Source: Candidatus Falkowbacteria bacterium (GTDB lineage Bacteria > Patescibacteriota > Patescibacteriia > JACRDY01). Taken from it: a stretch of 64,000 nucleotides of DNA. The notes under the pieces are model-generated. The model was not told the DNA's origin and searched no databases. It was given only the letters and a program-made list of their open reading frames with translations. The stretch spans positions 11,529-75,528 of the forward strand of contig JACRDY010000059.1 of the NCBI GenBank assembly GCA_016218485.1. Reading direction: 5' to 3'. Shown here piece by piece: positions 16,669-63,895 of this stretch. The translations under genes were made by a program, and so were the position numbers. Position 1 is the stretch's first letter. The number at the start of each line of letters is the position of its first letter.

Positions 16669-16669
16669 A

Positions 16670-16810: not shown

Positions 16811-16871
16811 TTCCCATCTGTCCCGCCCATCTTGATTTTTCCTCATTCATCTGCTACACTGCCCAAACTCT

Positions 16872-28770: not shown

Positions 28771-28831
28771 ATCCAGCACCTTTCAGAATACCCCGTCAGT
28801 TTGCTGCGGGGTATTCTGAAAGGTGCTGGAT
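28771..28831. repeat. atccagcacctttcagaatacccc...ggaaggtgctggat palindromic repeat (short form)
   Basis: Perfect ~28-bp arms. Confidence 0.8.
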
Positions 28832-31127: not shown

Positions 31128-31245
31128 ATCCAGCACCTTCCAGAATATCCCGCAGCAAGCTGACGGGGTATTCTGGAAGGTGCTGGATGAATGGCTGAGA
31201 GAGTATTTCTGTGGCGTGCACTACCCCGACAGGAAGGTGCTGGAT
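31128..31245. repeat. atccagcaccttccagaata... palindromic repeat (long form)
   Basis: Near-identical to 11846-11947. Confidence 0.8.
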
Positions 31246-38222: not shown

Positions 38223-38334
38223 TCCATCTTTTTGCTTTTTTAGGTTATCCACAGTTTAATCTTGATTTTTGATCAGAATAGTGTATTATTATTTTTAGGA
38301 TCTAAATAATAATTAATTTTTTAAGATCAAAAAT

Positions 38335-39414
38335 ATGGAGGAATTTAAATTAAAAGCATTCAAAGTCATCCAAAATGGTAGGCAATTTTACGTTTCAACC
38401 ATCACATGTGAGCAGCTACTCGACGAAGATACCTTTAGAACCGACATTTGGAAAGAGGAATTGAAAAATACTCCATCAAAACAAGGGTATCAACGAGAAC
38501 CATCTCAAAATCATGTTAATGGAGTTGTGAAGTATATGGCTGGTGATAATATATCAATTTTTCCCACCAGTATTTTGCTAAATTGCCGTTATAAAATACC
38601 TAGTCGCGAAAATGGCAGTATATTTGAGATAACTATTGATAGACCTCTATGGATCGTGGATGGTCAGCACCGAATTTATGGCATTAGAAAGGCCATTCAA
38701 GAGAAAGGTCTAAGAGAGTGGAAAGGATTTTCTGTGCCGGTAGTTATATTAGATGAATTTGATCAAGGTGAAGAATTAGCTCAATTTAAGGTTATTAATG
38801 AGAGTCAAAAGGGGATATCTACTGGTCTGTTGCAGTGGCAGATGTATCAACAGTATACTCGTGACCCTGAAATGAAGGATAAATATAAGAGTAAAATTTG
38901 GCAGGTCAAAGCTTTAATGGCTATGGATAAACTTAATGATGACGATAATAGCCCTTGGAAAAATCATATTCAACTGCCAAACGTGGAGAAACGCAGAGAT
39001 CATTCAATTAACCAAACTTCTTTTGTGACTTCTTTGAAGCCTTTATTTAAGGATGGTTTTCTAAGTAATTATAAACTAGATGATTCGGTTTTAGTCCTTA
39101 AGAATTATTGGAAAGCGGTCTCTGTATTGTTTCCTGAGGCAATGAAAGACCATAAGCATTATTTACTATTAAAAACCCCTGGTATTTTTCCATTACATCT
39201 ATTAGCTAACGAAATATTACCGCGTTGTAACAAAGATGTCAGTATAGAGAAGATATTGGAGTATTTAAAAGTTGTTTTTAAAGATCAAAAATATAGTAAC
39301 GAATTTTGGTCGAAAAAAGGCCGAGGAGCAGCTTTGTTAGGAAGTATGAAAGGATTTAAACGTTTAGCGGATGATTTGATCATGGATCTTCCAGAACAAA
39401 CCTTAACAAAATAA
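38335..39414 (+). CDS. DGQHR domain protein (DndB-like, ParB/Srx-fold)
   Basis: 359 aa; WIVDGQHRIYGI motif; ~36% GC against a ~55% background. Confidence 0.75.
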   Translation: MEEFKLKAFKVIQNGRQFYVSTITCEQLLDEDTFRTDIWKEELKNTPSKQGYQREPSQNHVNGVVKYMAGDNISIFPTSILLNCRYKIPSRENGSIFEITIDRPLWIVDGQHRIYGIRKAIQEKGLREWKGFSVPVVILDEFDQGEELAQFKVINESQKGISTGLLQWQMYQQYTRDPEMKDKYKSKIWQVKALMAMDKLNDDDNSPWKNHIQLPNVEKRRDHSINQTSFVTSLKPLFKDGFLSNYKLDDSVLVLKNYWKAVSVLFPEAMKDHKHYLLLKTPGIFPLHLLANEILPRCNKDVSIEKILEYLKVVFKDQKYSNEFWSKKGRGAALLGSMKGFKRLADDLIMDLPEQTLTK

Positions 39415-39424
39415 TTAAAATAAT

Positions 39425-39565
39425 ATGGCTAGAAAGATGACCAGTCCTCGAGTAGCTAAGATTGCCTCAAAGCAGTTAAAAAGCAAGACTGCTAATAAGG
39501 CGGCCAAGATGACTGCGGCCAGCGCTTTATCTCAGCGAGAAAAAAGTCGTCGTAAACGAAAGTAG
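39425..39565 (+). CDS. small lysine/alanine-rich basic protein (histone-H1-like composition), 46 aa
   Basis: MARKMTSPRVAKIASKQLKSKTANKAAKMTAASALSQREKSRRKRK translated by hand; 10 nt after the DGQHR gene; followed by a terminator; absent from the ORF track because it is under 60 aa. Confidence 0.45.
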   Translation: MARKMTSPRVAKIASKQLKSKTANKAAKMTAASALSQREKSRRKRK

Positions 39566-39574
39566 AGAATTCAT

Positions 39575-39610
39575 CTAAATCACCTCCGCCTCCCGCGGGG
39601 GTGTTTTTTT
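39575..39610. terminator. Hairpin (cctcccgcgggggtg) + T7, intrinsic terminator closing the DGQHR island
   Basis: Read directly. Confidence 0.6.
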
Positions 39611-39639
39611 AGTTTAGAAATATTTTAACTTTGGTATGG

Positions 39640-39830
39640 TAGGGTGTGTAATAGCCCGTTCCCCTCCTTTCCAAGGAGGGGCCAGGGGCGGTTGCCGGAG
39701 CCTTCGGTCTCTACCCAAGCTTTGTTCGCAGGCCACGGTAGCAGCCAATACCTCGGCAACCTCACCCGTCCTCCCCTTAGAAAGGGGAGGAACGGTCTAT
39801 TCCCGGTTGCCGGAGTTTAAATCCAATATA
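39640..39830. repeat. GC-rich mosaic repeat (cccctcctttccaaggagggg; ggttgccggagccttcggtc; cctccccttagaaaggggagg)
   Basis: Shares modules with 12790-12900. Confidence 0.7.
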
Positions 39831-39834
39831 TATG

Positions 39835-40233
39835 ACAAAAATTTACAACCGTCGTCAATTTAAACACTTGCGGCAAAAATTAAAGAGGGAATCAACCCCT
39901 TCGGAAGATAGGCTTTGAGGCGAAATTAACAACCGCCAATTAGGATTTAAGTTTCGCCGTCAGCACGGCATCGGTAAGTACATCGTTGATTTTTACTGTG
40001 CCGAACTACAATTGGTTATTGAGGTGGATGGCGACTCGCATACCGACCCCGATATTTACGCCGCTGACCGCATTCGTGATGCTGCATTAAGTGTTCAGGG
40101 TATAACGATTAAGCGGTATTACAGCAATGAAATTTTTAATAATTTAGAAGGTGTTATCTTGGATATTGAGGAAGTGTGTCGTGGGATAAAAAACAGCCGC
40201 CCGGGGGAGACCCGAGCGGAGCGGTGGCCATGA
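39835..40233 (+). pseudogene. DUF559 (Vsr-like endonuclease-fold) gene remnant: no ATG start and an in-frame TGA at the conserved Trp position
   Basis: Frame translates KIYNRRQFKHLRQKLKRESTPSEDRL*GEINNRQLGFKFRRQHGIGKYIVDFYCAELQLVIEVDGDSH..., matching the DUF559 consensus end to end; TGA at 39916-39918. Confidence 0.65.
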
Positions 40234-41794: not shown

Positions 41795-43411
41795 ATGTCA
41801 TTTTTTATTAAAAAAATTGGTCTTCATCAGCGGTATACTATTATTTTTGTTTTGTTAGGGATCGCTTCTTTTTTGGTTTTTAGTGTCCTGTCTGCCCGAC
41901 TGGCTTTCGTATCGGATGAATATGAGTTTATTTACGCTGCAGCGCAGGTACGCGATTGGGGTACACTTGTTCAGGTGCTAACCTCGAAAATTGGTGGCGA
42001 TTTTTATCGTCCAGTTTTGTATTTTTCTTTTATTATTGATTTTTGGGTTTATGGTTTGCAACCATTTGGTTATTATCTAACCAATAGTTTGTTAGCGGCG
42101 GTTAATGTGGTTTTAGTAGCGTTGATAGTTTTTACCGCTTTAGTTAATTACTTTTATAGTGATCCACGGGATCATGCTCGCAGTTTATTTCTTGCCCTTG
42201 TCTCTGGCGTGGTCTTTATGATTTTTCCGAATCATCATGAAGCCGTCACGTGGTTGGCCGCCAGAACGGATCTCTTAGCCGCTACGTGGTACTTTTTATC
42301 AGTTCTATTGTGGTTAAAATATTTAGCGGCCGAGAGGCGGGGTGGTCGGTATTTGACTGCAGGTTGTATTTTTGCCTTTCTAGCTTTTTTTACCAAAGAG
42401 ATGAGCGTTACCTTGGTACTCGCGCTGCCCATTATTTTTTTAGGGCATTTATTGTATATGCATCAGCGCCAGCAAAATTATAATTTTAAAAAATTGGTTG
42501 GTTTCTTGCCGCTTTTGGCGATATTTATTTTTTATTTGGTCTTCCGGCGGTATATCGTGGGGTATTGGTTCGGCGGGTATATGCTGAGTGGCAGTTCCGA
42601 GTTTCTTAAAATAGACATTCCGGCGGTTATCCGTTTGGTGTTGTCACCGGTGTCGATAGTTTTTTATTCACTGAATCATAGTTATTTTTTTCAGATAGTA
42701 TTGCCGCGTTGGGGCGGACCGTTTCGGGGGTTACCGTTTACCGATTATTTACAATATTTTAAATTTTTGTTTTATGGCGGTGGGGCAGTGTTCATATCGT
42801 TAACGGCGTTTTTTGCCTATTATCAGCAGCGAGTGCGTACCTGGTTACTGGGTGTCATGGTCGGCATACTCTGGGTTTATGTGACGATTCTGCCGATAGT
42901 TGGTTTACTAAAAACCGTTGGGTTGAATTTGGAATCAACGAGGTTTTTTTATTTACCCTCACTAGGAATTTGTTTTCTGTTGACGTTTAGTGTACTGTTT
43001 TGGCCAAAAATTATCCGTGGTATTATGGTGGTTGTCATGGTGTCTTTATTGTCAATTGTCTATTGGATAAATTATCAGCCGTGGTTGACTGCTTCCGTTT
43101 CCGCCAATTCAATTCAGCAAACCGTTACGCAATACGGTAGTGAGATCGTTTTCGACGATTGGGTGTATCTCGTGAATGTTCCCGATAATATCCATGGTGC
43201 CTATGTTTTTCGTCGGGGGTTGACTCAGATGTTCCAGCTCTTTCAGCCTCAGATTGATCGGCAGAAAATAATTATAACCGGCCGAGGCGTGGCAGGCATG
43301 GCCGCGCCAGACTGTTTATCATTGCTCAGCGATCAGTATTGGTTGATGAATACCGATCCTGAGAGCGGTATTGTTGATGGTTTGAGCAGAGCGGGAGCGG
43401 GGGGGGGGTAG
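41795..43411 (+). CDS. GT-C family glycosyltransferase (PMT/ArnT-like), interrupted at a G10 tract
   Basis: Many TM helices; GYYLTNSLLAAVNVVLVALIVF matches the GT39/83 N-terminal loop region; start inferred at MSFFIKK; stop immediately follows G10 at 43399-43408. Confidence 0.65.
   Translation: MSFFIKKIGLHQRYTIIFVLLGIASFLVFSVLSARLAFVSDEYEFIYAAAQVRDWGTLVQVLTSKIGGDFYRPVLYFSFIIDFWVYGLQPFGYYLTNSLLAAVNVVLVALIVFTALVNYFYSDPRDHARSLFLALVSGVVFMIFPNHHEAVTWLAARTDLLAATWYFLSVLLWLKYLAAERRGGRYLTAGCIFAFLAFFTKEMSVTLVLALPIIFLGHLLYMHQRQQNYNFKKLVGFLPLLAIFIFYLVFRRYIVGYWFGGYMLSGSSEFLKIDIPAVIRLVLSPVSIVFYSLNHSYFFQIVLPRWGGPFRGLPFTDYLQYFKFLFYGGGAVFISLTAFFAYYQQRVRTWLLGVMVGILWVYVTILPIVGLLKTVGLNLESTRFFYLPSLGICFLLTFSVLFWPKIIRGIMVVVMVSLLSIVYWINYQPWLTASVSANSIQQTVTQYGSEIVFDDWVYLVNVPDNIHGAYVFRRGLTQMFQLFQPQIDRQKIIITGRGVAGMAAPDCLSLLSDQYWLMNTDPESGIVDGLSRAGAGGG
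43399..43408. repeat. Homopolymeric G10 tract
   Basis: Read directly; removing one G fuses the 41726-43411 and 43419-43817 frames. Confidence 0.9.
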
Positions 43412-45397: not shown

Positions 45398-45525
45398 AAA
45401 TTCAAAGTTCAAAATCCAAATGACAAATCAAGTTCAAAGCCTAAATGTCAAATCAACGCACCTTTTTGAACTTTGTCATTTGGCATTGATTTGAACTTTG
45501 GATTTTGAACTTTGAACTTATCGGG
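45398..45525. repeat. AT-rich gttcaaagt palindromic repeat
   Basis: Near-identical to 14325-14450. Confidence 0.75.
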
Positions 45526-48849: not shown

Positions 48850-48950
48850 ATTCCTGGAGTGACACAGCCTCTGGCTGTGTTATGTTATTCAGTAGAGCTT
48901 TCAGCATAACACAGCCAGAGGCTGTGTCACTCCTACTGTGTCACTCCTAC
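48850..48950. repeat. Palindromic repeat gagtgacacagcctctggctgtgttatg ... cataacacagccagaggctgtgtcactc
   Basis: Variants at 56566-56650 and 60112-60190, between paralogs of the Cys-rich array. Confidence 0.8.
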
Positions 48951-50019: not shown

Positions 50020-50125
50020 AATCAGTAATCAGTAATCAGTAATCAGTAATCAGTAATCAGTAATCAGTAATCAGTAATCAGTAATCAGTAACTAGTTACT
50101 AGTTACTGATTACCAGTTACTTTAT
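50020..50125. repeat. Tandem heptamer array (agtaatc)x10 followed by inverted (agttact)x3
   Basis: Read directly. Confidence 0.9.
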
Positions 50126-51176: not shown

Positions 51177-51237
51177 ATCCAGCACCTTCCAGCATATCCC
51201 GTCAGCGTGCTGCGGGGTATGCTGGAAGGTGCTGGAT
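51177..51237. repeat. atccagcaccttccagcata... palindromic repeat (short form)
   Basis: Family copy. Confidence 0.8.
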
Positions 51238-51339
51238 AAAAATTAGAAATTGGAGAAAAACCCTTTGAAATAAAAGGTTTTTTATTTGCCAAAATAGGGG
51301 ATTCTGGTATAGTTGATGAGGGAGAAATTCAGTATTTCC

Positions 51340-51440
51340 TGCGTTTTAGTTATTGGAAAGAGATTTAGTATATCGTATGTCGTATATGGTATGTGGGGAA
51401 ATTCCCCCATATACCATATACCACATACTATATTCCCCCC
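51340..51440. repeat. gtatatg-heptamer-based palindrome directly upstream of paralog 1
   Basis: tcgtatgtcgtatatggtatgtgggg / ccccatataccatataccacatac. Confidence 0.6.
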
Positions 51441-51441
51441 T

Positions 51442-53091
51442 ATGCTCAACTGCAAGAATTGTAATCAACCTTTCACCATCTACCCCGAAGACCAGGAAAT
51501 GTACGATAAGTTTGCCGTACCCGCGCCGCGGCGTTGTCCGCGTTGCCGGCTGATTCAGCGGCTGATGTTCCGGAACGCTCGGGCCCTGTATTACCGGAAG
51601 TGCGACCGCAGCGGCGAGACCATTTTGTCCAGCTATAATCCGAGTCAGCCGTTCCCGGTGTACAAGCCGGATATTTGGTGGAGTGACCAATGGGAAGCCA
51701 TGGATTACGCCCGGGATTATGATTTTGGCAAACCATTTTTTGCCCAATTCAAAGAGCTGAATGACGTGGTACCGCACTTCAGCCTCTTCGTCAGTAATGG
51801 CACGGTGGTGAATTGCGACTTTACCAACTGTATTGGTTTTTCCAAGAATTGTTATTTGACGTTTGAGACTGACTACGCGGAGGACAGCTATTACTCCAAC
51901 CTCTTGAAACGGAGCAAGGACATGGTGGACTGTTCTATTTGCTATGATGATGAATTTTGCTACCAGTGCGTTGATTGCCAGGCGTCGTACGGCTTGCGCT
52001 ATTGTCAAAATTGCACCGGTTGCCGGGACAGCTATTTCCTGTTTGATTGTAAATCGTGTAATGACTGCATCGGCTGTATCAACCAGCGCTATCAGAAATT
52101 CATGATTTTTAACGAGCAGTACAGTGAAGCAGAATATAACCAGAAAAAAGCCGCGCTGCGGCTGGATACCCGCTCGGGCGTCGCGGCGCTCGCTTCGCAG
52201 TGCCAGCAGTTTTTCGGGAAGCACCCGCACAAAAATTTGCAGTTTGAAAAGAACGTCAATAGTGTCGGTAACTATTTGTATAACTCCAAAAACGCATTCC
52301 AGTGCTTCGACTGCAGCGACCTGGAAGACTGCCGCTACTGCGCTAAGCTGTCAATCGGCGTCAAGTCGTGCATGGATTACAACTCGTGGGGCGACCGGGC
52401 GGAGCTCGTCTACAGCTGTTCGGATGTCGGCGGCGGCGTGTATAACCTGAAATTTTGCTGGGCGATTGATACCAAGACCTCAGACTGTGAATACTGCACG
52501 CAGTGTATTGCCTGCAAGGACTGCTTTGGCTGCAGCGGACTGCAAAAGAAGCAGTACTGCATTTTGAATAAACAGTATTCGGAAAAAGAGTATTTCGCGT
52601 TGAAAGAAAAAATTATTGCCAAAATGACAGCCGATGGAGAGTATGGTGAATTTTTTCCGGCAGAGCTGTGTCCGTTTGCCTATAATGAAACCATCGTGAT
52701 GGATTATTTCCCCCTAACCAAAGATGAAGCGTTGAAAGCCGGCTATCGCTGGTATGACCGGGAAAAGTCCAAGCAGCCTGCTGAAACTGAGGCGCCGGAT
52801 GCGATTGGCGAGGTGGCGGACGCCATCATTGGTAAGGTATTAGCCTGCCGTGATTGCCAGTCAAATTATAAGATTATTAAACAAGAATTAGATTTTTGCC
52901 GTCGGGCGAGCGCGCCGATTCCTAGCCAGTGTCCGGACTGCCGACATTTTGGCCGAATGAACAAGCGGATGCCGCTGAGTTTGATCACGGTCAAATGCGA
53001 TAAATGCGGCAATGACATGACGACCGGATATACTGCCGGGGCGGTGCAGAAGGTGTATTGCGAGGAATGTTATCAGAAGGAAATTTACTAG
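51442..53091 (+). CDS. Cys-rich multi-zinc-ribbon repeat protein, paralog 1 of 6 (unassigned family)
   Basis: N-terminal CxxC...CPRCR ribbon; two internal Cys-rich blocks each ending in YC(I/M)(L/F)N(K/E)QYSE.EY; GEYGEFFP...PFAYNET; C-terminal ribbons ending YCEECYQKEIY. Confidence 0.8.
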   Translation: MLNCKNCNQPFTIYPEDQEMYDKFAVPAPRRCPRCRLIQRLMFRNARALYYRKCDRSGETILSSYNPSQPFPVYKPDIWWSDQWEAMDYARDYDFGKPFFAQFKELNDVVPHFSLFVSNGTVVNCDFTNCIGFSKNCYLTFETDYAEDSYYSNLLKRSKDMVDCSICYDDEFCYQCVDCQASYGLRYCQNCTGCRDSYFLFDCKSCNDCIGCINQRYQKFMIFNEQYSEAEYNQKKAALRLDTRSGVAALASQCQQFFGKHPHKNLQFEKNVNSVGNYLYNSKNAFQCFDCSDLEDCRYCAKLSIGVKSCMDYNSWGDRAELVYSCSDVGGGVYNLKFCWAIDTKTSDCEYCTQCIACKDCFGCSGLQKKQYCILNKQYSEKEYFALKEKIIAKMTADGEYGEFFPAELCPFAYNETIVMDYFPLTKDEALKAGYRWYDREKSKQPAETEAPDAIGEVADAIIGKVLACRDCQSNYKIIKQELDFCRRASAPIPSQCPDCRHFGRMNKRMPLSLITVKCDKCGNDMTTGYTAGAVQKVYCEECYQKEIY

Positions 53092-53154
53092 CGCACAGCA
53101 CAGAGCTTATAGCACAAAGCTATGCGCTCTGAGCTCTGTGCTTTGAGCTACTTT
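53092..53154. repeat. Inter-paralog palindromic spacer (gcacagcacaaagc...gctctgagctctgtgctttgagc); same at 54841-54903 and 58418-58477
   Basis: Three near-identical copies read directly. Confidence 0.8.
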
Positions 53155-54840
53155 ATGCCAACCTGTAAACAATGCAATCAACCTTTCATCCTTGGCCAGA
53201 TCGGCACAGATATTTTGCGGCGGCTGGATGTACCTGAACCGTCAGTGTGTGATGTTTGCGCCGTGCGCCAGCTGATGGCCTTTCGGAACGAGCGGACTTT
53301 TTATTCCAGCCAGTGTCAGAAGTGTTCGAAAACCATTCTATCGATGTATCCGCCAGACACCGCGCTGAGCGTCTACTGTCGCGACTGCTGGTGGGGAGAT
53401 ACTTGGGACGGCACGCAGTTTGGCCGAGTGTATCGTGGGCCGGAAACATTTTTCCAAGAGCTAGCTGAACTGCAGAAAGTCGTGCCTCGGGAAGGATTGG
53501 TTAACCTGAACAGTCCGGATTGCGATTACTGCAACCACGTCCGTGATTGCAAGTCCTGCTATATGTGTTCGCTCTTGTCTGATCAGTGTGAAGAATGTTA
53601 CTACTGCTACTGGATTGTCACGGTGAAGGATTCAGCGGCCTGTTACTATGGGCGCAATAACCAGCGCTGTTACTTCTGTGTCGCCACGATCCAGAGCTAT
53701 GGCTGCTCGTATGTATTGGAATGTGAAAATTGTTTAGACTGCCACTATAGCTTTGATCTGCGAGGCTGTAAGAATTGCATGTTCAGCAGCAACTTACGCA
53801 ATCAGCAGTATGTTTTTGAGAATCAACAGTTGACCAAGACTGAATACGAAACGCGGGCCGCGGCAGTCAATCGGGGGAGCTGGCAGCAGTCACGAGACTC
53901 TGTGCAACGCTGGCATCAGCTGATTGACCAGGCGGTGAAGGCGTACTCATACCAGAGTAAATGTGAAAATTCTACCGGGGATAATATCCAGAGCAGCGTG
54001 AACACCCAGCTCGCCTATAATAGTTTTGAAGATGAAAACGCCTATAACGCCGCGAGCGTGATTTGTGCTAAGAATATTTTTAACGGTTTTGCCGTGGGCA
54101 GCCAGCCGACCGAATGGGCGAGTAATATCGCCGTCGTGAAGGGCGGCACGCAGATCGTCAGCTGTTTCAACACCGCGTACTCCAGCGATATTTATTTTTG
54201 TGAGAATCTAATTTCCTGCATGGACTGCATCGGCTGTATTGGCCTGCACAAAAAGAAGTACTGCATTCTGAATACACAGTATGAGGAAGAGGAGTATAAA
54301 AAAATCAAAGCCGAGCTACTCGGGTATTTGCGTCAGAGCGGCGCGCTGTCGGAATTTTTCCCAAAGTCATTTTCGCCATTTGCCTACAATGAAACCGCGG
54401 CGCAGGATTTTTATCCTTTGACGAAAGAACAAGCCGTTCAGCTGGACTATACTTGGAAGGATGAATTACCCGGGACTTTTGGCCATGAGACGCTGCCAGC
54501 CGATGGCGTGCCCGATCGGATTGCCGAGGTGAATGATGACATCTTACGGCAGACTCTAGCCTGTATTCACTGCGGCCGGAATTTCAAATTAATTAAACAA
54601 GAGCTGACACTTTATCGGTCGCTCGGCGTGCCGATCCCGCGCGAATGTTTTAATTGTACGTTGCGTCAGCGGCTGGACTTGATGGGGGAGCGTGATTTAC
54701 GGGAGCGGCAGTGTGATTGTACGCGAGCAGAACATCAGCAGCATCAGGGTAAAACATGCCAAAATAAGTTTTTGACGAAATATACCGCGAAAGATAAGAA
54801 GGTGTACTGCGAGGAGTGTTATCAGAAGGAAATTTACTAA
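53155..54840 (+). CDS. Cys-rich multi-zinc-ribbon repeat protein, paralog 2
   Basis: Same architecture; true start MPTCKQCNQPF (the ORF-track start lies in the inter-paralog palindrome). Confidence 0.8.
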   Translation: MPTCKQCNQPFILGQIGTDILRRLDVPEPSVCDVCAVRQLMAFRNERTFYSSQCQKCSKTILSMYPPDTALSVYCRDCWWGDTWDGTQFGRVYRGPETFFQELAELQKVVPREGLVNLNSPDCDYCNHVRDCKSCYMCSLLSDQCEECYYCYWIVTVKDSAACYYGRNNQRCYFCVATIQSYGCSYVLECENCLDCHYSFDLRGCKNCMFSSNLRNQQYVFENQQLTKTEYETRAAAVNRGSWQQSRDSVQRWHQLIDQAVKAYSYQSKCENSTGDNIQSSVNTQLAYNSFEDENAYNAASVICAKNIFNGFAVGSQPTEWASNIAVVKGGTQIVSCFNTAYSSDIYFCENLISCMDCIGCIGLHKKKYCILNTQYEEEEYKKIKAELLGYLRQSGALSEFFPKSFSPFAYNETAAQDFYPLTKEQAVQLDYTWKDELPGTFGHETLPADGVPDRIAEVNDDILRQTLACIHCGRNFKLIKQELTLYRSLGVPIPRECFNCTLRQRLDLMGERDLRERQCDCTRAEHQQHQGKTCQNKFLTKYTAKDKKVYCEECYQKEIY

Positions 54841-54903
54841 CACACAGCACAAAGCGCAGAGCACAAAGCTATGCGCTCTGAGCTCTGTGCTTTGAGCTAC
54901 TGT

Positions 54904-56565
54904 ATGCCAACCTGTAAAAACTGCACCACCGACTTCACCATCACCGACGCAGACAAAACGTTCTACGCCAAGATTGACGTACCCGAGCCGACGCGCTGCC
55001 CGCAGTGCCGGAAACAGCGGCGTTTGAGCTTCCGCAATGAGTCAAATTTTTATTTAACCAAATGTCAGCGGTGTCATAAAGAAACGGTTTCGGTGTATTC
55101 ACCGAATAAACCTTTGGTGGTGTATTGTAAAGACTGCTGGTGGGGTGAGGACTGGAATCCGTTGGATTACGGCCAAGAGTTTGATTGGCAGAAAAGTTTT
55201 ACCGAGCAGTTTAGAGATCTGATGGCGGTGGTGCCGCGGCCGGCGCTCTTGCATTCCGAGAGCGTGAACTGCGATTATAGCATGTTTTCGGCCAATAATA
55301 AGGACTGCTACATGCTGGTACAGTCCAGTAACTGCGAAGAATGCCACTACTGCTACTGGGTGCAGAAATGCCGTAATTGTTTGGATTCGGCGTTTTGTTT
55401 GGACTGCGAGCTGTGCTATCAAGTTGTCGGCGGGGAAAAGTGTTATAACTGTTTTTATTGTAACAATTGTTCCGGTTGCTTGGACAGTCGGTTTCTGCTT
55501 AATTGTCGTGGCTGCAAAAATTGCTTTGGCTGCGTTAATCTCAATAACGCGCAATATTGCATTTTTAATGAACAGAAAACGAAAACCGAGTATGAAACAT
55601 TTATTCAATCAGTAGATTTTATTTCATACCGACACTACCGAGAGTACCAGGAAAAGTTTTATCAGTTTTCTTTACAGCACCCGCGTCGTTTCGCTGAAAT
55701 TTATCAGGCGGATAATTCTACGGGTAATTATCTCAAACGGGTTAAAAACGTCACCATGATTTTTGACGGTTATGATATTGAAGACTGTAGCTACGGTCAG
55801 CACGTCTTGCGTGAGGTGAAAGATGTGATGGATGTCAGTAATGCCGCTCGTAAAGCAGAATTAGTCTATGAAAGTGTTCAGGCGGTATTGAACGTGTATC
55901 AGATTCGTTTTAGTTTATTCCCGCGTCAAGGCGCTTCATTTTTGGATTACTGCGATCATTGCGTCGGGGCTAAGAATTGTTTCGGCTGCATCGCGGTGCG
56001 GAATCAAAAGTATTGCATTTTGAATAAACAGTATAGTGAAAAAGAATATACCGTTGTGGTGCCGAAAATTATTAATCACCTCAAACAAACAGGGAAGTGG
56101 GGAGAATTTTTTGATCCGAGTCTGTCGGCGTTTGGCTATAACGAAACGAACGCCATGGAATTTTTCCCGTTGACGAAAAAAGCGGCAATGACTCAAGGGT
56201 TTAACTGGGAGGATAACACCGGCGGTACTTTCGGCCAGGAAACAATCAAGTGGGCAAACATGCCGGATCGTTTCAGCGACTATGCGGGCGACTTGAGCCG
56301 AGAAGTGTTGACGTGCTCTGACTGCCGGCGGAATTATAAGTTGGTGGCCGTAGAACTGGATTTTTATAAAAAATATAGCTTACCCATTCCGCGGCAGTGC
56401 CCGAAGTGTCGCCACCGCGAGCGCATCACCAGCCGGAATCCGGAACAGCTGTATCACCGTGCCTGTATGAACGCAGGGTGTAAGAATGAATTTGAAACCA
56501 CGTATTCACCCGCCCGACCGGAAAAAGTTTATTGTGAAGCGTGTTACCAGAAAGAGATTTATTAG
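54904..56565 (+). CDS. Cys-rich multi-zinc-ribbon repeat protein, paralog 3
   Basis: Same architecture; 5' ~100 nt near-identical to paralogs 5 and 6. Confidence 0.8.
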   Translation: MPTCKNCTTDFTITDADKTFYAKIDVPEPTRCPQCRKQRRLSFRNESNFYLTKCQRCHKETVSVYSPNKPLVVYCKDCWWGEDWNPLDYGQEFDWQKSFTEQFRDLMAVVPRPALLHSESVNCDYSMFSANNKDCYMLVQSSNCEECHYCYWVQKCRNCLDSAFCLDCELCYQVVGGEKCYNCFYCNNCSGCLDSRFLLNCRGCKNCFGCVNLNNAQYCIFNEQKTKTEYETFIQSVDFISYRHYREYQEKFYQFSLQHPRRFAEIYQADNSTGNYLKRVKNVTMIFDGYDIEDCSYGQHVLREVKDVMDVSNAARKAELVYESVQAVLNVYQIRFSLFPRQGASFLDYCDHCVGAKNCFGCIAVRNQKYCILNKQYSEKEYTVVVPKIINHLKQTGKWGEFFDPSLSAFGYNETNAMEFFPLTKKAAMTQGFNWEDNTGGTFGQETIKWANMPDRFSDYAGDLSREVLTCSDCRRNYKLVAVELDFYKKYSLPIPRQCPKCRHRERITSRNPEQLYHRACMNAGCKNEFETTYSPARPEKVYCEACYQKEIY

Positions 56566-56650
56566 GAACGACACGCCCTCTGGGCGTGTTATGTTTGTTA
56601 CGCGCTCTGTAACCATAACACAGCCAGAGGCTGTGTCGTTCCCTTGGAGG
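56566..56650. repeat. Inter-paralog gacacgccctctgggcgtgttatg...cataacacagccagaggctgtgtc palindrome
   Basis: Same family as 48850-48950 and 60112-60190. Confidence 0.8.
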
Positions 56651-56695
56651 AACAATTTTTGACAAAATTTAAAATCCTGGCTATACTAAAGCATT

Positions 56696-58417
56696 ATGCC
56701 ATACTGCCGAAATTGCTCCCAAGCGTTTGACATTACGTTAAAAGAAAAAGATTTTTACGCTAAGATGGGCACCAAACAGCCGAGCCATTGTTTTGATTGC
56801 CGGATGCAGCGCAAGTACGCGTTCAGAAATGAGCGCAAAATTTATAACCGCCAGTGCAGCTTGTGTCAGCAACAGATTATCAGCTCTTACCCGGCGGACG
56901 CGCCTTTTCCGGTGTATTGTTTTGATTGTTGGTGGTCGGATCGGTGGGACGGTTTGAGCTACGGCCGGGATTTTGATTGGTCCCGTCCATTTTTTTCGCA
57001 ACTCTCTGAGCTGTCGCTCAAGGTCCCGCACCAAGCCCTGCCCAATCCGAATAATAACCAGAACAGCCCGTATGTTACGTGGGCCGATTGGAACAAAAAT
57101 TGTTATTTAGTCTTTTCTTCTTCAATGTGTGAAGATTGTTTGTACTCTGAAGTTTTGGTTGACGCTCGAGACTGTGTTGACTGCACGAATGTTAAAGAAT
57201 CGGAGAACTGTTATTTTTCTATCGATTTGCAGAAATGCTATAACGTCAAATTTAGCCGCAATGTAAAAGATTGCCTGGATTGTAATTTTTGTTTTGATTG
57301 CGCTGACTGCAAAAATTGTTTTTTGTCTTATAATCTGCGTCACGGAGAATACTATATCCGTAATGTTCAGTACTCGCCGGACGCGTATGTCCAGGCAGTC
57401 GAGCGGATTATGGCCAGCCGCAGCGAGCTCGTGCGGGCGTGGGATGAATTTATTAACATGATGCGCTCTGACGCCATCCACCAGTTCGCTCGTCAGGTGA
57501 AGTGTGAAGACGTGGAGGGTGATGAGCTGTATGCCTGCAAGCGCAGTTTCAATAGTTTTGATTCGCGCGAGATTCAGGATTGCTGCAATATTATTTACGG
57601 CGACAAGATTAACGACTGCGCTGATAGCTTCGCCATCGTTGACCACGCTGAAAAATGTTTGGAGGTCTTTAGTGTCAATGGCGGCTATCAAAATATGTAC
57701 GGCTATGGTTATTGGGGAAAATCCCAAAATAGCCGGTACAGCAATACCTGCGTTTCGTCCGTTGATTGTTTCGGCTGCATTGGTCTAAAACACCAGAAAT
57801 ATTGTATTCTGAACAAGCAGTATTTGGCGGCCGAATATCAAATCATGGTCAAAAAAGTTTTGGAACATATGCGGAAGTCTAATTATCCGACGTACGCTGG
57901 CCAGACGAGCGAGTGGGGTGAATTTTTCCCGGTGCAGCTTTCACCCTTTGCTTATAATGAAACAATGGCTCATGTTTATTATCCGCTTAAAAAAGAAGAA
58001 GTTTTAGCGCGCGGCTGGGGCTGGAGGGACGAAAATGATATACTCACTGGTAAAGAAACTATTCATGGGGAGGCATTGCCGGATGCTGCGGCATCAGTTC
58101 CCAAGGGCATGACTGACCAGGTGATCGGCTGCGCTGACTGTGGCCGGAATTACAAGCTGATCAAGCAGGAAATAGATTTCTACACCAAACATACTCTGCC
58201 GCTGCCCAAGATGTGTCCGGAGTGCCGCTTTCAGCAGCGGTTGGCCCTGCGTAATCCGCGTAAGCTGTGGCCGCGGCAGTGCACCTGTCTCCTGGGTCAC
58301 GCCAGCCATCAGGGTCAATCAGTCTGTCCGATTCATTTCAAGACCACCTACCGGCCGGCCGAAGGGGGAGAGGCGAAAGTGTATTGTGAGGAATGTTATC
58401 AGAAGGAAATTTACTAG
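56696..58417 (+). CDS. Cys-rich multi-zinc-ribbon repeat protein, paralog 4
   Basis: Same architecture (MPYCRNCSQAF... ...VYCEECYQKEIY). Confidence 0.8.
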   Translation: MPYCRNCSQAFDITLKEKDFYAKMGTKQPSHCFDCRMQRKYAFRNERKIYNRQCSLCQQQIISSYPADAPFPVYCFDCWWSDRWDGLSYGRDFDWSRPFFSQLSELSLKVPHQALPNPNNNQNSPYVTWADWNKNCYLVFSSSMCEDCLYSEVLVDARDCVDCTNVKESENCYFSIDLQKCYNVKFSRNVKDCLDCNFCFDCADCKNCFLSYNLRHGEYYIRNVQYSPDAYVQAVERIMASRSELVRAWDEFINMMRSDAIHQFARQVKCEDVEGDELYACKRSFNSFDSREIQDCCNIIYGDKINDCADSFAIVDHAEKCLEVFSVNGGYQNMYGYGYWGKSQNSRYSNTCVSSVDCFGCIGLKHQKYCILNKQYLAAEYQIMVKKVLEHMRKSNYPTYAGQTSEWGEFFPVQLSPFAYNETMAHVYYPLKKEEVLARGWGWRDENDILTGKETIHGEALPDAAASVPKGMTDQVIGCADCGRNYKLIKQEIDFYTKHTLPLPKMCPECRFQQRLALRNPRKLWPRQCTCLLGHASHQGQSVCPIHFKTTYRPAEGGEAKVYCEECYQKEIY

Positions 58418-58477
58418 TGCACAGCACAAAGCGCACAGCACAAAGCTATGCGCTCTGAGCTCTGTGCTTTGAGCTAT

Positions 58478-60109
58478 ATGCCTAAATGTAAACAATGCAC
58501 CACCGATTTCCCCATCACCGACGCAGACAAAACGTTCTACGCCAAGATTGACGTACCTAAACCGACGCGCTGTCCGCAATGCCGCCGCGTTCGCCGATTG
58601 AGCTACCGTAATGAAATCACATTGTATCCCGCCATCTGTGGTTTGTGTAAGAAAAGCATGATCAGCATGTACAACCCGGACGGATCGTATGTGGTGTATT
58701 GTCAGGATTGCTGGTGGGGAGACGGCTGGGACCCGACGGCATCCGGTCAGACGTATGATCCGAGCCGATCATTTTTTGAACAATTTAGTGAGTTGATGAA
58801 AAAAGTGCCGCGGATCAGTTTGATTAATAAAGAAGCGGACAATAGCGAGTACTGTAATTTTTCTTGGCGGAACAAAAATTCCTACCTTTTATTTACCGGC
58901 GGAGAGAACGATGACGTGTTTTATGCTAATCGCTGCTGGAAGTGCCGGAGTAGTATTGATTGCTCCAACCTGTATAATTGTGAATTGTGTTATGAAGCGA
59001 CTGATTCCGCCAATTGTTATAATTGCGCTTGGCTAGAATACTCAACCGGCTGCTCTGACTGTTGGCTGGGGTACAACCTTAGCGGCTGCTCGGACTGTTT
59101 CGGCTGCGTTAACCTGTCTAATCAGAAATTTCATATTTTTAATACCCCGGTACCTGAAGCCGAGTACCGTCAGCGGATCGCGGAGTTGAAGAAGGACCTG
59201 CCGGCGGCGGCGCAGCTATTTCGGGCACAAAAAATGAAAGGGGTGCGCAAGTACGCCAATATTATAAAATCAGTGAATTGCAGCGGTGATTCAATCGTTG
59301 GCAGCAAGAATTGCCAGTCGTGTTTCCGGGTCAAAGACGCGGAAGACTGCAAGTACGTTTGCGATACGACATTGATCAAAGACAGCTATGACGTTGATAA
59401 CGATGATCATTCAGAATTGCTCTATGAGTGCATTGGTAACGAGTCCAACCATAATCAGCAATTCATTGACATCTGCTGGTTTGATCGGGATATTCAGTAC
59501 TGTAGCCTCTGCATGAGCTCAAAGAATCTGTTTGGCTGTGTGGGAATGAAAAACGCGGAGTACTGTATTTTGAATAAAAAATATTCAGCGGAAGAATATG
59601 AGACGCTACGCCAGCAGATTATTGTCAAAATGAAACAAGATGGGGAATATGGTGAGTTTTTTCCCAGTAAATTTTCGCCCTTTGGTTATAATGAGACGAA
59701 CGCCTCCCTGTATTACGAGCTCAAAAAAGAGCAGGCTGTTGCCGCCGGCTTTACCTGGCAGGACAATTTGCCGTCAACGACTGGTAAAGAAACGCTCAAG
59801 GAATTACCGGCGGACATTAGCCAGGTAAACGAGGGGATTACCAAAGAGATTTTGGCCTGCCAGTCGTGCGGTAAGAATTATAAATTTATTCCCCAGGAAG
59901 TGAAACTGTATAAAATGCTCGGCGTACCGCTCCCGCCACAGTGTTTCCGCTGTCGTCATGTTGGCCGGATCCACCGACGGAATGGCCAGACACTCTATAG
60001 CCGCACCTGCATGAAAGACGGCTGCAAGAATTCATTTGAGACGCCATACGCGCCGGATCGGAAAGAAGTGGTTTACTGTGAGGAGTGCTATCAGAAGGAA
60101 ATTTACTAA
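58478..60109 (+). CDS. Cys-rich multi-zinc-ribbon repeat protein, paralog 5
   Basis: Same architecture. Confidence 0.8.
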   Translation: MPKCKQCTTDFPITDADKTFYAKIDVPKPTRCPQCRRVRRLSYRNEITLYPAICGLCKKSMISMYNPDGSYVVYCQDCWWGDGWDPTASGQTYDPSRSFFEQFSELMKKVPRISLINKEADNSEYCNFSWRNKNSYLLFTGGENDDVFYANRCWKCRSSIDCSNLYNCELCYEATDSANCYNCAWLEYSTGCSDCWLGYNLSGCSDCFGCVNLSNQKFHIFNTPVPEAEYRQRIAELKKDLPAAAQLFRAQKMKGVRKYANIIKSVNCSGDSIVGSKNCQSCFRVKDAEDCKYVCDTTLIKDSYDVDNDDHSELLYECIGNESNHNQQFIDICWFDRDIQYCSLCMSSKNLFGCVGMKNAEYCILNKKYSAEEYETLRQQIIVKMKQDGEYGEFFPSKFSPFGYNETNASLYYELKKEQAVAAGFTWQDNLPSTTGKETLKELPADISQVNEGITKEILACQSCGKNYKFIPQEVKLYKMLGVPLPPQCFRCRHVGRIHRRNGQTLYSRTCMKDGCKNSFETPYAPDRKEVVYCEECYQKEIY

Positions 60110-60111
60110 CA

Positions 60112-60190
60112 AGGGAACGACACGCCCTCTGGGCGTGTTATGTCGGTTACACGCTCTGTAACGATAACACAGCCAGAGGCTGTGTCGCTC
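60112..60190. repeat. Inter-paralog palindrome (same family as 56566-56650)
   Basis: Near-identical. Confidence 0.8.
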
Positions 60191-60200
60191 CGAACAGCAT

Positions 60201-61841
60201 ATGCCAACCTGTAAACAATGCACCACCGACTTTCCCATCACCGACGCAGACAAAACGTTCTACGCTAAGATTAGCGTACCCGAGCCGACGCGCTGTCCGG
60301 ACTGCCGGCAGCAGCGACGGTTGTCGTGGGTCAATGAAATGAATCTATATCCCCGTCAGTGCGACCTATCAGGTAAAAATATTATTTCGTCATGTCGGCC
60401 GGATAGCGGCTTGATTATTTATGATACTCACCGGTGGTGGGGTGACGGCTGGGAAGGTCTGAATTTTGGGGTTGAGTATAATGAGGGTCAAAAATTTTTT
60501 GATCAATTTTTTGCATTACATAAGACCGTACCCCATCCAGCGCTCAACGTTACCTATGGCACGTTGATTGACAGCGAGTACGTGAATTACTGTGGTCATA
60601 CCAAAAGTAGCTACCTGATATTTGACAGTGACTACGATGAGGATTGCTATTACTGCTATTCAGTTAATAATTCTAAAGACCTGGTTGATTGTTTAAAAAT
60701 GCAGCGTTCTGAATTGTGCTATAGCTGTATTGACTGCGATGAATGTTTTAACTTGTTTTACTCTCAAGATTGTTTGCGCTGTTCCGAGAGTTATTGGTTA
60801 AAAAACTGTTACAACTGCGTCAATTGTTTTGGCTGCGTGAATGCGCGGAATCAGAAGTATTGTTGGTTCAACGAACAATTAACGCCGGAAGAATATCAAC
60901 GTCGTTTAGCCGGAGCTACCATCAGCAGCCGTCAGGCGGTTAGACAGTGGCAGACGAAGTATGCGGATTTTAGATTGCAGTATCCCTGTATTTACCAGCA
61001 CGGGATCAAAAATGACGGCTGTACCGGCGATTACCTGAAAAACACCAATCAAGTCGCTGATTCGTATGATTGCTGGGAGGCGCAGAATTGCCGCTACTGT
61101 TACGCGATTTATTTTTCCTCAAAAGATATGTATGACGTTTTCCAGTGGGGGAATTGTCAGCTGATGTATGAAGGCGTGGTGGTGGGGGAGAATGATTATA
61201 ACTGCAAATTTTGTTTCCAATGCTATAACAGCTGTCAAAACCTAGAATACTGTTTTGAGAGTCATGGCTGCAAAAACTGCTTTGGCTGTGTTGGCTTAAA
61301 GAAAAAAGAATTTTGCATTCTTAATAAACAGTATACCGAACCGGAGTACTTACGATTACGGGAACAGATTATTCAGAAAATGAAAGCCGATGGTGAATAT
61401 GGCGAGTTTTTCCCGGCGGCATATTCTCCGTTTGGTTATAATGAAACGACGGCCCGGTTTTACTATCCGTTGTCGCGCGAGCAGGCGCTGGAACGTGGCT
61501 GGCGCTGGTTTGATCAAGAGGAAAAGAACGTTGATCATAAAGCACCGCCGGATGATTTGGGAATGGTGACCGAGGATATATTGAGAGAAACGTACGTCTG
61601 CGCCTGTGGCAAGTCGTTCAAAATTATTCCCCAGGAATGGAAATTTTATCAGAATTTAAAAATCCCTCTGCCCGATCAATGTTACATCTGCCGTCATCAG
61701 GATAGACTACGGCAGCGCAACCCGCAGCATCTCTGGCCGCGTCAGTGTGCCAAATGTCAGAAAGACATGCAGACGACATATGCTCCGGACCGGCCGGAAA
61801 TAGTCTACTGTCGTGAATGTTTCCGCGAGGCAGTGTATTAG
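60201..61841 (+). CDS. Cys-rich multi-zinc-ribbon repeat protein, paralog 6
   Basis: Same architecture; C-terminus diverged to YCRECFREAVY. Confidence 0.8.
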   Translation: MPTCKQCTTDFPITDADKTFYAKISVPEPTRCPDCRQQRRLSWVNEMNLYPRQCDLSGKNIISSCRPDSGLIIYDTHRWWGDGWEGLNFGVEYNEGQKFFDQFFALHKTVPHPALNVTYGTLIDSEYVNYCGHTKSSYLIFDSDYDEDCYYCYSVNNSKDLVDCLKMQRSELCYSCIDCDECFNLFYSQDCLRCSESYWLKNCYNCVNCFGCVNARNQKYCWFNEQLTPEEYQRRLAGATISSRQAVRQWQTKYADFRLQYPCIYQHGIKNDGCTGDYLKNTNQVADSYDCWEAQNCRYCYAIYFSSKDMYDVFQWGNCQLMYEGVVVGENDYNCKFCFQCYNSCQNLEYCFESHGCKNCFGCVGLKKKEFCILNKQYTEPEYLRLREQIIQKMKADGEYGEFFPAAYSPFGYNETTARFYYPLSREQALERGWRWFDQEEKNVDHKAPPDDLGMVTEDILRETYVCACGKSFKIIPQEWKFYQNLKIPLPDQCYICRHQDRLRQRNPQHLWPRQCAKCQKDMQTTYAPDRPEIVYCRECFREAVY

Positions 61842-61844
61842 ACA

Positions 61845-61900
61845 CAGATTACACAGATAATCACAACTGGCACAGATCCGTGTGATCTGTGTAATCTGTG
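61845..61900. repeat. cacagat heptamer-based palindrome
   Basis: gacacagattacacagataatcaca...gtgatctgtgtaatctgtgtc. Confidence 0.7.
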
Positions 61901-61904
61901 TCTA

Positions 61905-61965
61905 AAAAAAAGAGCCGGCGGACGCGCCAGGCGAGGTGGATACTTCGCGCGTCCGTCGGTTTTTT
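61905..61965. terminator. Bidirectional intrinsic terminator (cggacgcgc...gcgcgtccg stem with T-runs on both strands)
   Basis: Read directly. Confidence 0.7.
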
Positions 61966-62257
61966 AGTGCAGTAGCGGAGTGTCGCTGCTGGCTCCGCAG
62001 TCGTGGATGACGGGACCCGGAGCATCGTCAGCGGTGAAGCTGACATTACAGATGTTGCAATACCATCGCGTGCCGCCTTCACCGACCACGGCCATCCGTG
62101 TTTTGGCTGGCGGCGTCGCCGCCGGTGCGGTGGTGGCGAATGCGGTTGTTGTCAGTACTGTGTGGCATTCCGGGCAGCGTCCGGTACTGGCGGACGGATC
62201 ACCGTGCCAGCCGCACCCCGCACAAGTCGTATACTGTCTGGCTTGCATCCCAGGCAT
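61964..62257 (-). CDS. small GC-rich double zinc-ribbon protein
   Basis: 97 aa; CAGCGWHG...CPEC and YCNICN...HDCG halves joined by a Thr/Ala/Pro linker; ggagggg RBS 5 nt upstream. Confidence 0.55.
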   Translation of the reverse strand: MPGMQARQYTTCAGCGWHGDPSASTGRCPECHTVLTTTAFATTAPAATPPAKTRMAVVGEGGTRWYCNICNVSFTADDAPGPVIHDCGASSDTPLLH

Positions 62258-62543: not shown

Positions 62544-63803
62544 ATGAAAATAAAACAAATCCGCGCTCGTGAGATTCTTGATTCTCGCGGCGACCCGACC
62601 GTTGAGGTCGAGGTAGTGTTGAGGAACGGCATTCGGGTGAAAGCTTCAGTACCCTCCGGCGCTTCCACGGGCGCGCATGAGGCTTGGGAGTTCCGTGACG
62701 GCGACAAGAAACGGTACGGTGGTAAGGGTGTGTTGAAAGCGGTACGAAACGTCAATGACAAAATCGCGCCGATGCTTCTGGGCCAGCGTGCCAATAAGCA
62801 GTCGTACCTGGATGAACTGATGATTAAGTTGGACGGCACCAAGAACAAGCAGAATCTCGGCGCTAATGCCATTCTCGGTGTGTCACTGGCAGTTGCCCGC
62901 GCCGCCGCGGCGAGTAAAGGCTGGCCTTTGTATAAATACCTCCGGACGTTGTCGTCGCTGGAACTGATGCGCTACCAGCTGCCCATGCCGATGTTTAATA
63001 TTTTTAACGGCGGTAAGCACGCCGACACCAATCTTGATTTCCAGGAATTCATGATCATCCCGAAAGGGCTGAACGGCAGCTTCGCGGAAAAAGTTCGGGC
63101 GGGCGCGGAAGTCTTTCATGCGCTTGGTAAAGTGCTCTTGGCCAACGGCAAAGATACCGATGTGGGGAATGAGGGCGGGTACGCGCCGGATATTCACCTG
63201 ACGACTGACGCCATCAAGTATATTCTGACGGCGATTACCAAAGCCGGATACAATAAGGGTAAACAGCAGATTTTTCTCGGCACTGACGTGGGCGCGTCCG
63301 AGCTCTACCGCAAGAGCCAAAAAGAGTATCATTTTCAGCTCGGGGTTCATCGCCTCAACCGTCAGCAGATGATTGACGAGTTTGCCGAATGGCTGACTAA
63401 GTATCCATTCTGTTCCATTGAAGACCCGCTGGATCAGGATGATTGGCTCGGCTGGCAGCAAATCACCAAACAGCTGGGCAGAAAGGTGATGCTGGTGGGC
63501 GATGATCTGTTTGTTACCAATGTCGATCGTTTAACCATAGGTATTAGTAAAAATGCGGGCAATGCCGTTTTGGTCAAGCTCAATCAAGTCGGCAGCCTGT
63601 CTGAAACCCTGCGCTGTATTGAGCTGGCTAAGGCGCATCGCTACAATGTGGTGATTTCGCACCGCTCTGGTGAAACATCCGATGATTTTATCGCTGATCT
63701 GGCCGTGGCGGTCAATGCCGAGTATATCAAGTCAGGGTCGCTGTCCCGCGGCGAGCGTCTGGCCAAGTATAATCGGCTGATGGAAATTGAGAGAGAAATT
63801 TAA
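62544..63803 (+). CDS. eno: enolase
   Basis: MKIKQIRAREILDSRGDPTVEVEV... the ORF-track start at 62433 is an upstream extension through the repeat. Confidence 0.95.
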   Translation: MKIKQIRAREILDSRGDPTVEVEVVLRNGIRVKASVPSGASTGAHEAWEFRDGDKKRYGGKGVLKAVRNVNDKIAPMLLGQRANKQSYLDELMIKLDGTKNKQNLGANAILGVSLAVARAAAASKGWPLYKYLRTLSSLELMRYQLPMPMFNIFNGGKHADTNLDFQEFMIIPKGLNGSFAEKVRAGAEVFHALGKVLLANGKDTDVGNEGGYAPDIHLTTDAIKYILTAITKAGYNKGKQQIFLGTDVGASELYRKSQKEYHFQLGVHRLNRQQMIDEFAEWLTKYPFCSIEDPLDQDDWLGWQQITKQLGRKVMLVGDDLFVTNVDRLTIGISKNAGNAVLVKLNQVGSLSETLRCIELAKAHRYNVVISHRSGETSDDFIADLAVAVNAEYIKSGSLSRGERLAKYNRLMEIEREI

Positions 63804-63895
63804 GATTGCAGATTTCAGATTGCAGATTGGTATAGTAGTAACGTTACGTACCAACCCAATCTGCAATCTGAAATCTGCAATCTGAAATCTACTAT
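63785..63895. repeat. gattgca / gatttca heptamer-based palindrome between eno and gpmI
   Basis: Read directly. Confidence 0.75.

Follow-up and report, generated by a model that had tools for sequence, protein, structure and literature searches.

How can neighbouring genes of one family be almost identical in nucleotide sequence at their ends and barely alike in between? The question is raised by six same-strand tandem paralogs, P1 to P6, which lie between an AI-2E transporter gene and the enolase gene in a 64,000-nucleotide (nt) window, the whole stretch of DNA that was analysed, from a Candidatus Falkowbacteria bacterium (assembly GCA_016218485.1, contig JACRDY010000059.1, forward-strand positions 11,529 to 75,528; coordinates below are those of the window). 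Sequence comparison within the array and across its family points, with a probability of about 0.75, to ectopic gene conversion in short tracts, which would affect the junctions of this ancient tandem array and leave the gene cores orthologous under purifying selection. The gene coordinates were set by starts of the MP(T/K/Y)CK type, P3 being supported by an NCBI protein match and a structure model and the other genes by the list of open reading frames (ORFs) and the family alignment:

51442..53091, + strand: P1, 549 amino acids (aa)
53155..54840, + strand: P2, 561 aa, the most divergent copy
54904..56565, + strand: P3, 553 aa
56696..58417, + strand: P4, 573 aa
58478..60109, + strand: P5, 543 aa
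60201..61841, + strand: P6, 546 aa

All six are intact full-length ORFs with ATG starts (543-573 aa). P3 is 100% identical to the NCBI entry ‘zinc-ribbon domain containing protein [Candidatus Falkowbacteria bacterium]’ of 553 aa, which likewise starts at MPTCK, and the next best protein match after this record is 48% identical.

The identity at the 5' end is a property of P3, P5 and P6. In sliding 60-nt windows, pairs of these three genes are 88-93% identical over nt 1-90 and drop to ~50% by nt 120, and all other pairs stay at 38-68% over the same stretch. Local alignment places the tract between ATG-1 and +106/+122 at 88-89% identity; measured over the first ~107-123 nt, identity is 86-93%, versus ~50% across the remaining gene length. 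Compared with 226 genes of the family in other genomes, these tracts do not exceed 68% identity even in their best match. Moreover, within codons 1-37 the same codon is used for 81-90% of the identical amino acids, compared with ~50% in the cores; because synonymous codons are thus held in common as well, the 5' signal does not reflect conservation at the protein level. A home-made, GENECONV-like permutation test on polymorphic columns, which is other than the published GENECONV program, returned a global p<=0.0005 for all three 5' pairs, with fragments spanning alignment positions 5-123 and 12-107. The initial annotation, made from the window's sequence, had put these genes at ~90% identity over their first ~100 nt and had proposed sliding-window and recombination tests; both tests agree with it, as identity is in excess at the ends rather than uniform along the genes.

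At the 3' end the picture is less sharp. Over the last 42 nt, P1, P2, P4 and P5 are 83-93% identical and P3 reaches only 71%, so that the near-identity earlier described for the last ~40 nt of P1 to P5 stands for four of the five genes. The same tail reaches 79-86% in unrelated genomes, and the similarity is therefore mostly that of a conserved peptide, VYCEECYQKEIY. An excess of identity within this genome is seen for P1, P2 and P4 only (permutation test, p=0.005 for P1-P2 and 0.014 for P1-P4), and the 3' end of P6 has diverged (CRECFREAVY).

The two ends are joined by spacers of two types, and it is the junctions, comprising tail, spacer and the following 5' end, that carry the clearest record of exchange:

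53092-53154, 54841-54903 and 58418-58477, + strand: copies of spacer A (inverted-repeat and repeat comparison)
56565-56642 and 60114-60191, + strand: copies of spacer B, 94% identical (repeat comparison)
53048..53176, + strand: J12 tract, made up of the 3' tail of P1 (43 nt), spacer A and nt 1-22 of P2, 90-91% identical to J23 and J45
54797..55026, + strand: J23 tract, made up of the 3' tail of P2, spacer A and the initial ~107-123 nt of P3 (local alignment, permutation test)
56511..56642, + strand: J34, made up of the 3' tail of P3 and the hairpin of spacer B, with 83% identity to J56 across 141 nt
58375..58584, + strand: J45 tract, made up of the 3' tail of P4, spacer A and nt 1-107 of P5 (local alignment, permutation test)
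60051..60323, + strand: J56, P5 3' tail and spacer B as in J34, then the first ~123 nt of P6 as in P3 and P5 (local alignment)

All five spacers form strong hairpins (-27 to -48 kcal/mol; the spacer B hairpin at J34 folds at -48.1 kcal/mol, z -8.0). Two palindromic spacer types had been reported at these positions, and both are there; their order along the array is A, A, B, A, B, so the alternation also claimed for them is not strict.

In local alignments, the segment common to J12, J23 and J45 runs from stop-43 through spacer A to ATG+21 (129 nt, 90-91%), and the one common to J23 and J45 extends to ATG+106 (213 nt, 89%). J56 carries spacer B and has in common with J23 and J45 only the part from ATG-1 to +106/+122, at 88-89% (to +122 at 89% against J23), and with J34 it has in common a segment from stop-54 through spacer B (141 nt, 83%). 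The breakpoints accordingly fall at stop-43, ATG-1, ATG+21 and ATG+106/122. J56 joins two donor types and thereby shows the mosaic, and because the common segments form a mosaic, it takes several exchanges, overlapping and ending at different points, to account for them.

The cores tell a different history. Within the array they are 47-54% identical in nucleotides, which bears out the moderate internal identity first noted, and 33-45% identical in amino acids. When neighbours were assigned by core amino-acid identity in an alignment of 232 genes, the nearest one lay in another genome for 161 of the 176 array genes across loci, P1 and P3-P6 among them. The P1 core, for example, is 55% identical to Peregrinibacteria/Peribacteria homologs and 40% to its best in-array paralog. 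P2 reaches at best 36% with any of the 232 members; it has also lost several near-invariant N-terminal residues (Y21, R36), and is perhaps evolving fast or degenerating. The 5' tracts of P3, P5 and P6 are thus nearest each other (86-89%), and their cores are nearest the genes of other genomes.

Rates of nonsynonymous (dN) and synonymous (dS) substitution were estimated on between-genome ortholog pairs. In the central region, dN is 0.09-0.25, dS is above 0.9 or saturated, and their ratio (omega) is 0.05-0.23, values which indicate that the cores are ancient and conserved, not DIVERSIFYING, and are under purifying selection. The diversifying evolution that the initial annotation had supposed in the cores, and for which it had proposed a pairwise dN/dS comparison of the six genes, is contradicted both by these ratios and by the closest core relatives lying in other genomes. 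In most of the ortholog pairs, dN of the N-terminal 37 codons lies above that of the core, which is what overwriting of N-termini by paralogs of the same genome should produce.

The same pattern recurs well beyond this array. The family, comprising 1,519 clusters at 50% identity (E<=1e-30), is essentially restricted to Patescibacteria, and a scan of one genome per species gave 77 loci, almost all labelled as Patescibacteria lineages, 62 of which carry 2-10 tandem copies within +-10 kb. Pairs at least 80% identical over the first 111 nt make up 23 of 418 within loci, 22 of them (in 10 loci) with a core below 65%, and 3 of 26,378 between loci. Terminal homogenisation is hence found in at least 10 independent arrays. 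Three independent examples (L003, L035 and L027) show a like step-shaped identity pattern with entirely different sequences, and L003 has two spacer hairpin types as well. Other within-array tracts of high identity lie in the C-terminal third, and the central nt ~330-1070 are rarely involved.

The hairpins appear to be passengers of this process. In L035 and L027, the 5' end is homogenised with spacers of 5-20 nt (the family median is 10 nt), so hairpins are not required for homogenisation. In addition, the inverted-repeat list of the window holds at least 14 further strong inverted repeats between genes, one at the head of the array and the other 13 well away from it; this list is the basis of the hairpin frequency, as a minimum-free-energy scan of gene 3' ends is confounded by GC content. 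One hairpin outside the array is related to spacer B:

48856..48933, + strand: spacer B relative outside the array, downstream of tsf, folding at -62.3 kcal/mol

A 23-nt arm of this hairpin (48861-48928) is identical to arms of both spacer B copies, and copies of spacer A were found solely in the array when the 64 kb were searched. Dispersal to unlinked intergenic sites therefore holds for spacer B and not for spacer A. Given the many other sites and the spacer B arm near tsf, the hairpins are best seen as a trait of the genome carried along by conversion, and palindromic spacers as such are not specific to the array.

The reading that these results favour can be laid out as follows. Six paralogs that diverged long ago and are conserved in function, all members of a large family of the Patescibacteria, or candidate phyla radiation (CPR), would stand in tandem, and non-reciprocal short-tract homologous recombination between neighbouring copies would repeatedly overwrite their junctions. 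An overwritten unit would begin ~43 nt before the end of one gene, take in the hairpin spacer and reach 21-123 nt into the next gene, where the first zinc finger is encoded; a minimum of three or four such events, overlapping but ending at different points, could have produced the present mosaic. The central cores would remain unconverted and track their orthologs in other genomes. Tracts are probably confined to the ends because only the terminal domains keep enough identity for heteroduplex formation, and because conversions into differentiated cores would be selected against. The spacer hairpins would be gene-end hairpins of a kind common in the genome, carried along by conversion inside the array.

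Concerted evolution by partial gene conversion is known in bacteria, as in tufA/tufB and in babA/babB of Helicobacter pylori, the latter being conserved at the 5' and 3' ends and divergent in between. The array resembles such paralogs in its discrete high-identity tracts, which include silent and non-coding sites, in its excess of long common fragments, in its mosaic breakpoints and in the disagreement, by identity-based neighbours, between tracts and the remainder of the genes. It differs in that the converted parts are the junctions (3' tail, hairpin spacer and first zinc-finger domain), in that the paralogs are ancient with orthologs across the superphylum, and in that the family is uncharacterised and phenotypic variation is not implied. 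As short-tract conversion in a tandem gene family is textbook, no new kind of system is at hand; what the analysis contributes is the description of a very large, tandemly arrayed and uncharacterised CPR family in which the ends are concerted and the beta-solenoid cores orthologous. Orthology assignment and phylogenies of the family should consequently leave out the terminal domains. Tandem arrays of Trypanosoma brucei have also been analysed for gene conversion and concerted evolution (PMC1855330).

Whether the concerted evolution of the terminal domains is selected, and not merely tolerated, is a separate matter, and selection appears rather doubtful. If it did act, the terminal zinc-finger modules of co-resident paralogs would be kept matched to a common partner or to one another, possibly within a hetero-oligomeric beta-solenoid assembly, while the ancient cores would hold distinct specificities conserved across orthologs. 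In that case, the repeated ending of conversion at the finger boundary (nt ~105) in many lineages would be the mark left by a modular set of proteins, central to CPR biology, with ‘common adaptor ends, differentiated core’.

Several points weigh against conversion as set out here. Column-shuffling tests are blind to regional differences in constraint, and this matters most at the 3' tail, where identities of 79-86% with unrelated genomes weaken the result. No close strain or species for comparison was found by a protein search and two metagenome DNA scans, nor by a search of exact-protein records aimed at close relatives, and hence conversion events are neither visible as polymorphisms nor datable. 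In addition, spacers A and B end 2-9 nt ahead of the next ATG, which leaves no room for a promoter, so that efficient termination at them would be incompatible with expression of P2, P3, P5 and P6. The remaining points, the balance of codon differences within the 5' tract and the recurrent place at which tracts end, bear equally on the foremost alternative.

According to that alternative, the junction module (3' tail, hairpin and first ~107 nt) is kept identical by selection at the nucleotide level, as a cis-regulatory RNA or DNA element; it could be a common target of a small RNA, of an RNA-binding protein or of autoregulation, or it could couple translation across the hairpin. P3, P5 and P6 agree at every position of a 31-nt stretch, CCATCACCGACGCAGACAAAACGTTCTACGC, most of which is predicted to be unpaired, and the three copies of spacer A have the same 31-nt right arm (100% identity, where none would be expected by chance), with the left arm varying. 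Nonsynonymous and synonymous codon differences within the 5' tract are about equal (5 versus 3-6), and a ratio of ~1:1 is unlike simple purifying selection after conversion. Many 5' tracts across the family, in independent arrays, end at nt 104-107, at the second CxxC of the first zinc finger, and this recurrent end at nt ~105 could mark a functional nucleotide-level element. However, P1, P2 and P4 are intact without the element, and the tract sequence is wholly different between genomes. No known RNA family was found in the array with Rfam, and the 5' tract shows no stable conserved fold: the one predicted for 127 nt is weak (-13 kcal/mol), and its covariation term is positive, so that covariation does not support it. 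Moreover, an N-terminal dN above core dN speaks for overwriting and not for conservation, and identity in anciently diverged genes would still need conversion. Selection of this kind is therefore an unlikely explanation of the junctions, even if it has points in its favour.

Gene conversion at the junctions must also be set against a programmed system of variable-protein cassettes, in which the ends and palindromes serve as recombination sites that shuffle diversified cores for antigenic or phase variation. In Neisseria pilE/pilS, Borrelia vlsE and Anaplasma msp2, an expression site is accompanied by silent, truncated cassettes. The array shares with these systems a superficial layout of repeated units and spacers in which conserved flanks surround divergent central segments, and across the family nt ~330-1070 are rarely homogenised and both ends often are. 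On the other hand, none of the six ORFs is disrupted and each has its own start codon, so there are no silent cassettes, and no expression site stands beside such copies. The junction repeats are direct, and an exchange between two of them would remove or duplicate entire genes instead of shuffling cores. Orthologs of the cores exist in other phyla, and the cores are conserved under the purifying constraint described above; the products, which appear from their sequences to be cytoplasmic zinc-finger proteins, have neither a membrane segment nor a signal-like N-terminus by hydropathy (maximum 19-residue window 0.43-1.42; N-termini hydrophilic). The immediate flanking genes, EF-Ts and GAPDH just upstream and the AI-2E transporter and enolase genes on either side, encode no recombinase or reverse transcriptase. 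A cassette system is thus very improbable, and of the earlier interpretation as a whole, terminal conversion or recombination is upheld by discrete, significant and mosaic tracts that include synonymous and spacer sites and disagree with the cores, while diversifying cores and the likeness to cassettes are not.

A diversity-generating retroelement (DGR) was considered as well and rejected: mismatches within the tracts of P3, P5 and P6 are C/T, A/C and multi-base codon changes, and runs of A are unchanged. No DGR reverse transcriptase occurs among the flanking housekeeping genes, the scan for one having been limited to these and not made across the window.

Equally hard to credit is a recent duplication followed by very fast divergence of the cores under positive or diversifying selection, the ends being residues of the original identity. 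Ends far more alike than cores are what it would leave, but the affinities of the P1 and P3-P6 cores, closer to genes of other genomes than to array neighbours, refute it; synonymous sites in the cores are saturated, with the same codon in ~50% of cases, the background set by codon bias. The 5' tract, moreover, occurs in only three of the six genes, and mosaic combinations of tracts are not producible by simple decay of duplicates. Finally, a chimeric or mis-joined contig is barely conceivable even though the contig comes from a metagenome-assembled genome and repeats of 130-210 nt can be a source of error in short-read assembly, as the repeats are 83-91% and not 100% identical, every gene is intact and in frame, and a like pattern occurs in many independently assembled arrays.

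The proteins whose ends would be exchanged in this way are rich in cysteine (7-8%) and carry zinc-finger motifs. PF13451 (zf_Tbcl), a treble-clef finger, matches the N-terminal 40 residues of P3-P6 above the gathering threshold of 24 bits (P3 31.9, P4 25.2, P5 25.6, P6 27.5), and no match to it was reported in P1 and P2 at E<=1. A C-terminal CxxC-x17-CxxC resembles zf_Tbcl_2 (PF23477/TIGR04272) below threshold, and LIM is also sub-threshold. These domains cover fewer than 80 of the ~550 residues, and the remainder, with two beta-solenoid-like modules and an FFP..SPF(A/G)YNET region, matched no curated family in Pfam or NCBIfam. A sequence search of the PDB gave only weak LIM matches, and a Foldseek search against the PDB gave nothing; among models of defence systems, a single, spurious zinc-ribbon match to Cas12f was discarded. 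In an AlphaFold model of P3 (predicted local distance difference test, pLDDT, 81; predicted template modelling score, pTM, 0.85), N-terminal zinc fingers are predicted to be followed by two moderately confident Cys-rich repeat modules, each with a helix after it, and by two more zinc fingers in the C-terminal region. In the architecture so predicted, treble-clef zinc fingers at the N-terminus and further zinc fingers at the C-terminus enclose two Cys-rich modules that resemble beta-solenoids. Each paralog contains an internal duplication that is visible in the DNA (e.g. 52063-52112 versus 52519-52568), and both Cys-rich modules end in the motif (D/N)C(F/I)GC..(L)....(Y/F).I.N..Y...EY.

No literature on the family or its arrays was found, and two look-ups of the gene neighbourhood returned only unrelated housekeeping genes and no conserved neighbourhood. 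In one Staskawiczbacteria contig (L080), a family array directly adjoins the phosphoglycerate kinase gene, and in Nomurabacteria (L078/L079) the single copy of L078 lies ~5 kb from tsf/rpsB; the array of the window stands between gap and eno, ~3 kb from tsf. L078, L080 and the window may retain a loose ancestral synteny of the family with genes of glycolysis and translation.

Transcription of the array was approached through a promoter scan of a 16-kb region, in which the following two sites were the top matches:

56659..56687, + strand: promoter-like site TTGACA-17-TATACT upstream of P4, the best in the scan (11/12, consensus match only)
51286..51313, + strand: promoter-like site TTGCCA-16-TATAGT (with TG) upstream of P1 (10/12, consensus match only)

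Because the best promoter-like sites precede P1 and P4, they suggest two operons, P1-P3 and P4-P6, from consensus matches alone. The hairpins of the array are probably RNA 3'-end, processing, stability or attenuation elements inside these putative operons. In-frame ATGs upstream of the MPTCK start, opening MRSELCALSY..., had been pointed out inside spacer A, and they are real (53122, 54871 and 58448), so gene callers should beware of them. The spacer A copy at J45 (58418-58477) has a 3-nt deletion relative to J12 and J23 that keeps this ATG in frame with P5, which may be coincidence or may mean that the ATG is used.

Two further hairpins, each with a sequence unique in the window, bound the array:

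51370..51433, + strand: head hairpin just upstream of the P1 start, -37.6 kcal/mol, z -7.8
61838..61905, + strand: tail hairpin over the P6 stop codon, -36.5 kcal/mol, z -8.9

Directly before the head hairpin, a 22-nt stretch at 51349-51370 (GTTATTGGAAAGAGATTTAGTA) matches the 3' tail of P3 at 18 of 22 positions, which is statistically borderline (score 14, null maximum 14.5); borderline as it is, it may be a relic of a lost upstream, seventh paralog or a copied junction module. The tail hairpin is followed by a terminator-like hairpin with a U-tract at 61906-61965.

Long intergenic hairpins also occur at 873-946, 6446-6561, 10418-10488, 10980-11036, 16663-16811, 45430-45512, 50038-50121 and 63798-63888, usually at or over stop codons and mostly without a U-tract. 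Hairpin arms are made of ~7-nt tandem units, e.g. AGTAATC x4, CATTAAAA, GTTCAAA and ATTGCAG, and like-styled hairpins are found in further CPR arrays, namely L021 (TGTAGG units), L070 and L059 (AACATTCT). Repetitive extragenic palindromes (REP), with the related bacterial interspersed mosaic elements (BIME), and terminator-like palindromes are known classes of intergenic palindrome. The hairpins of the window resemble these in being strong, in standing right after stop codons and in forming dispersed sequence families; they differ in that most have no U-tract, in that their arms are often built of ~7-nt tandem units and in that spacer A is found only in the array. A family of three perfect-stem hairpins at 28771-28831, 31128-31188 and 51177-51237 (ATCCAGCACCTT(C/T)CAG...CGGGGTAT...) looks like a dispersed REP-like element, and its last copy begins 1 nt past the stop codon of the AI-2E transporter gene.

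Downstream of the array, a 97-aa Cys-rich ORF with CxxC motifs (61964-62257, - strand), which had no Pfam match, is convergent with P6. Elsewhere in the window, GC content falls to 0.38-0.41 at 38001-40000 and 42001-43000, against a window average of ~0.50.

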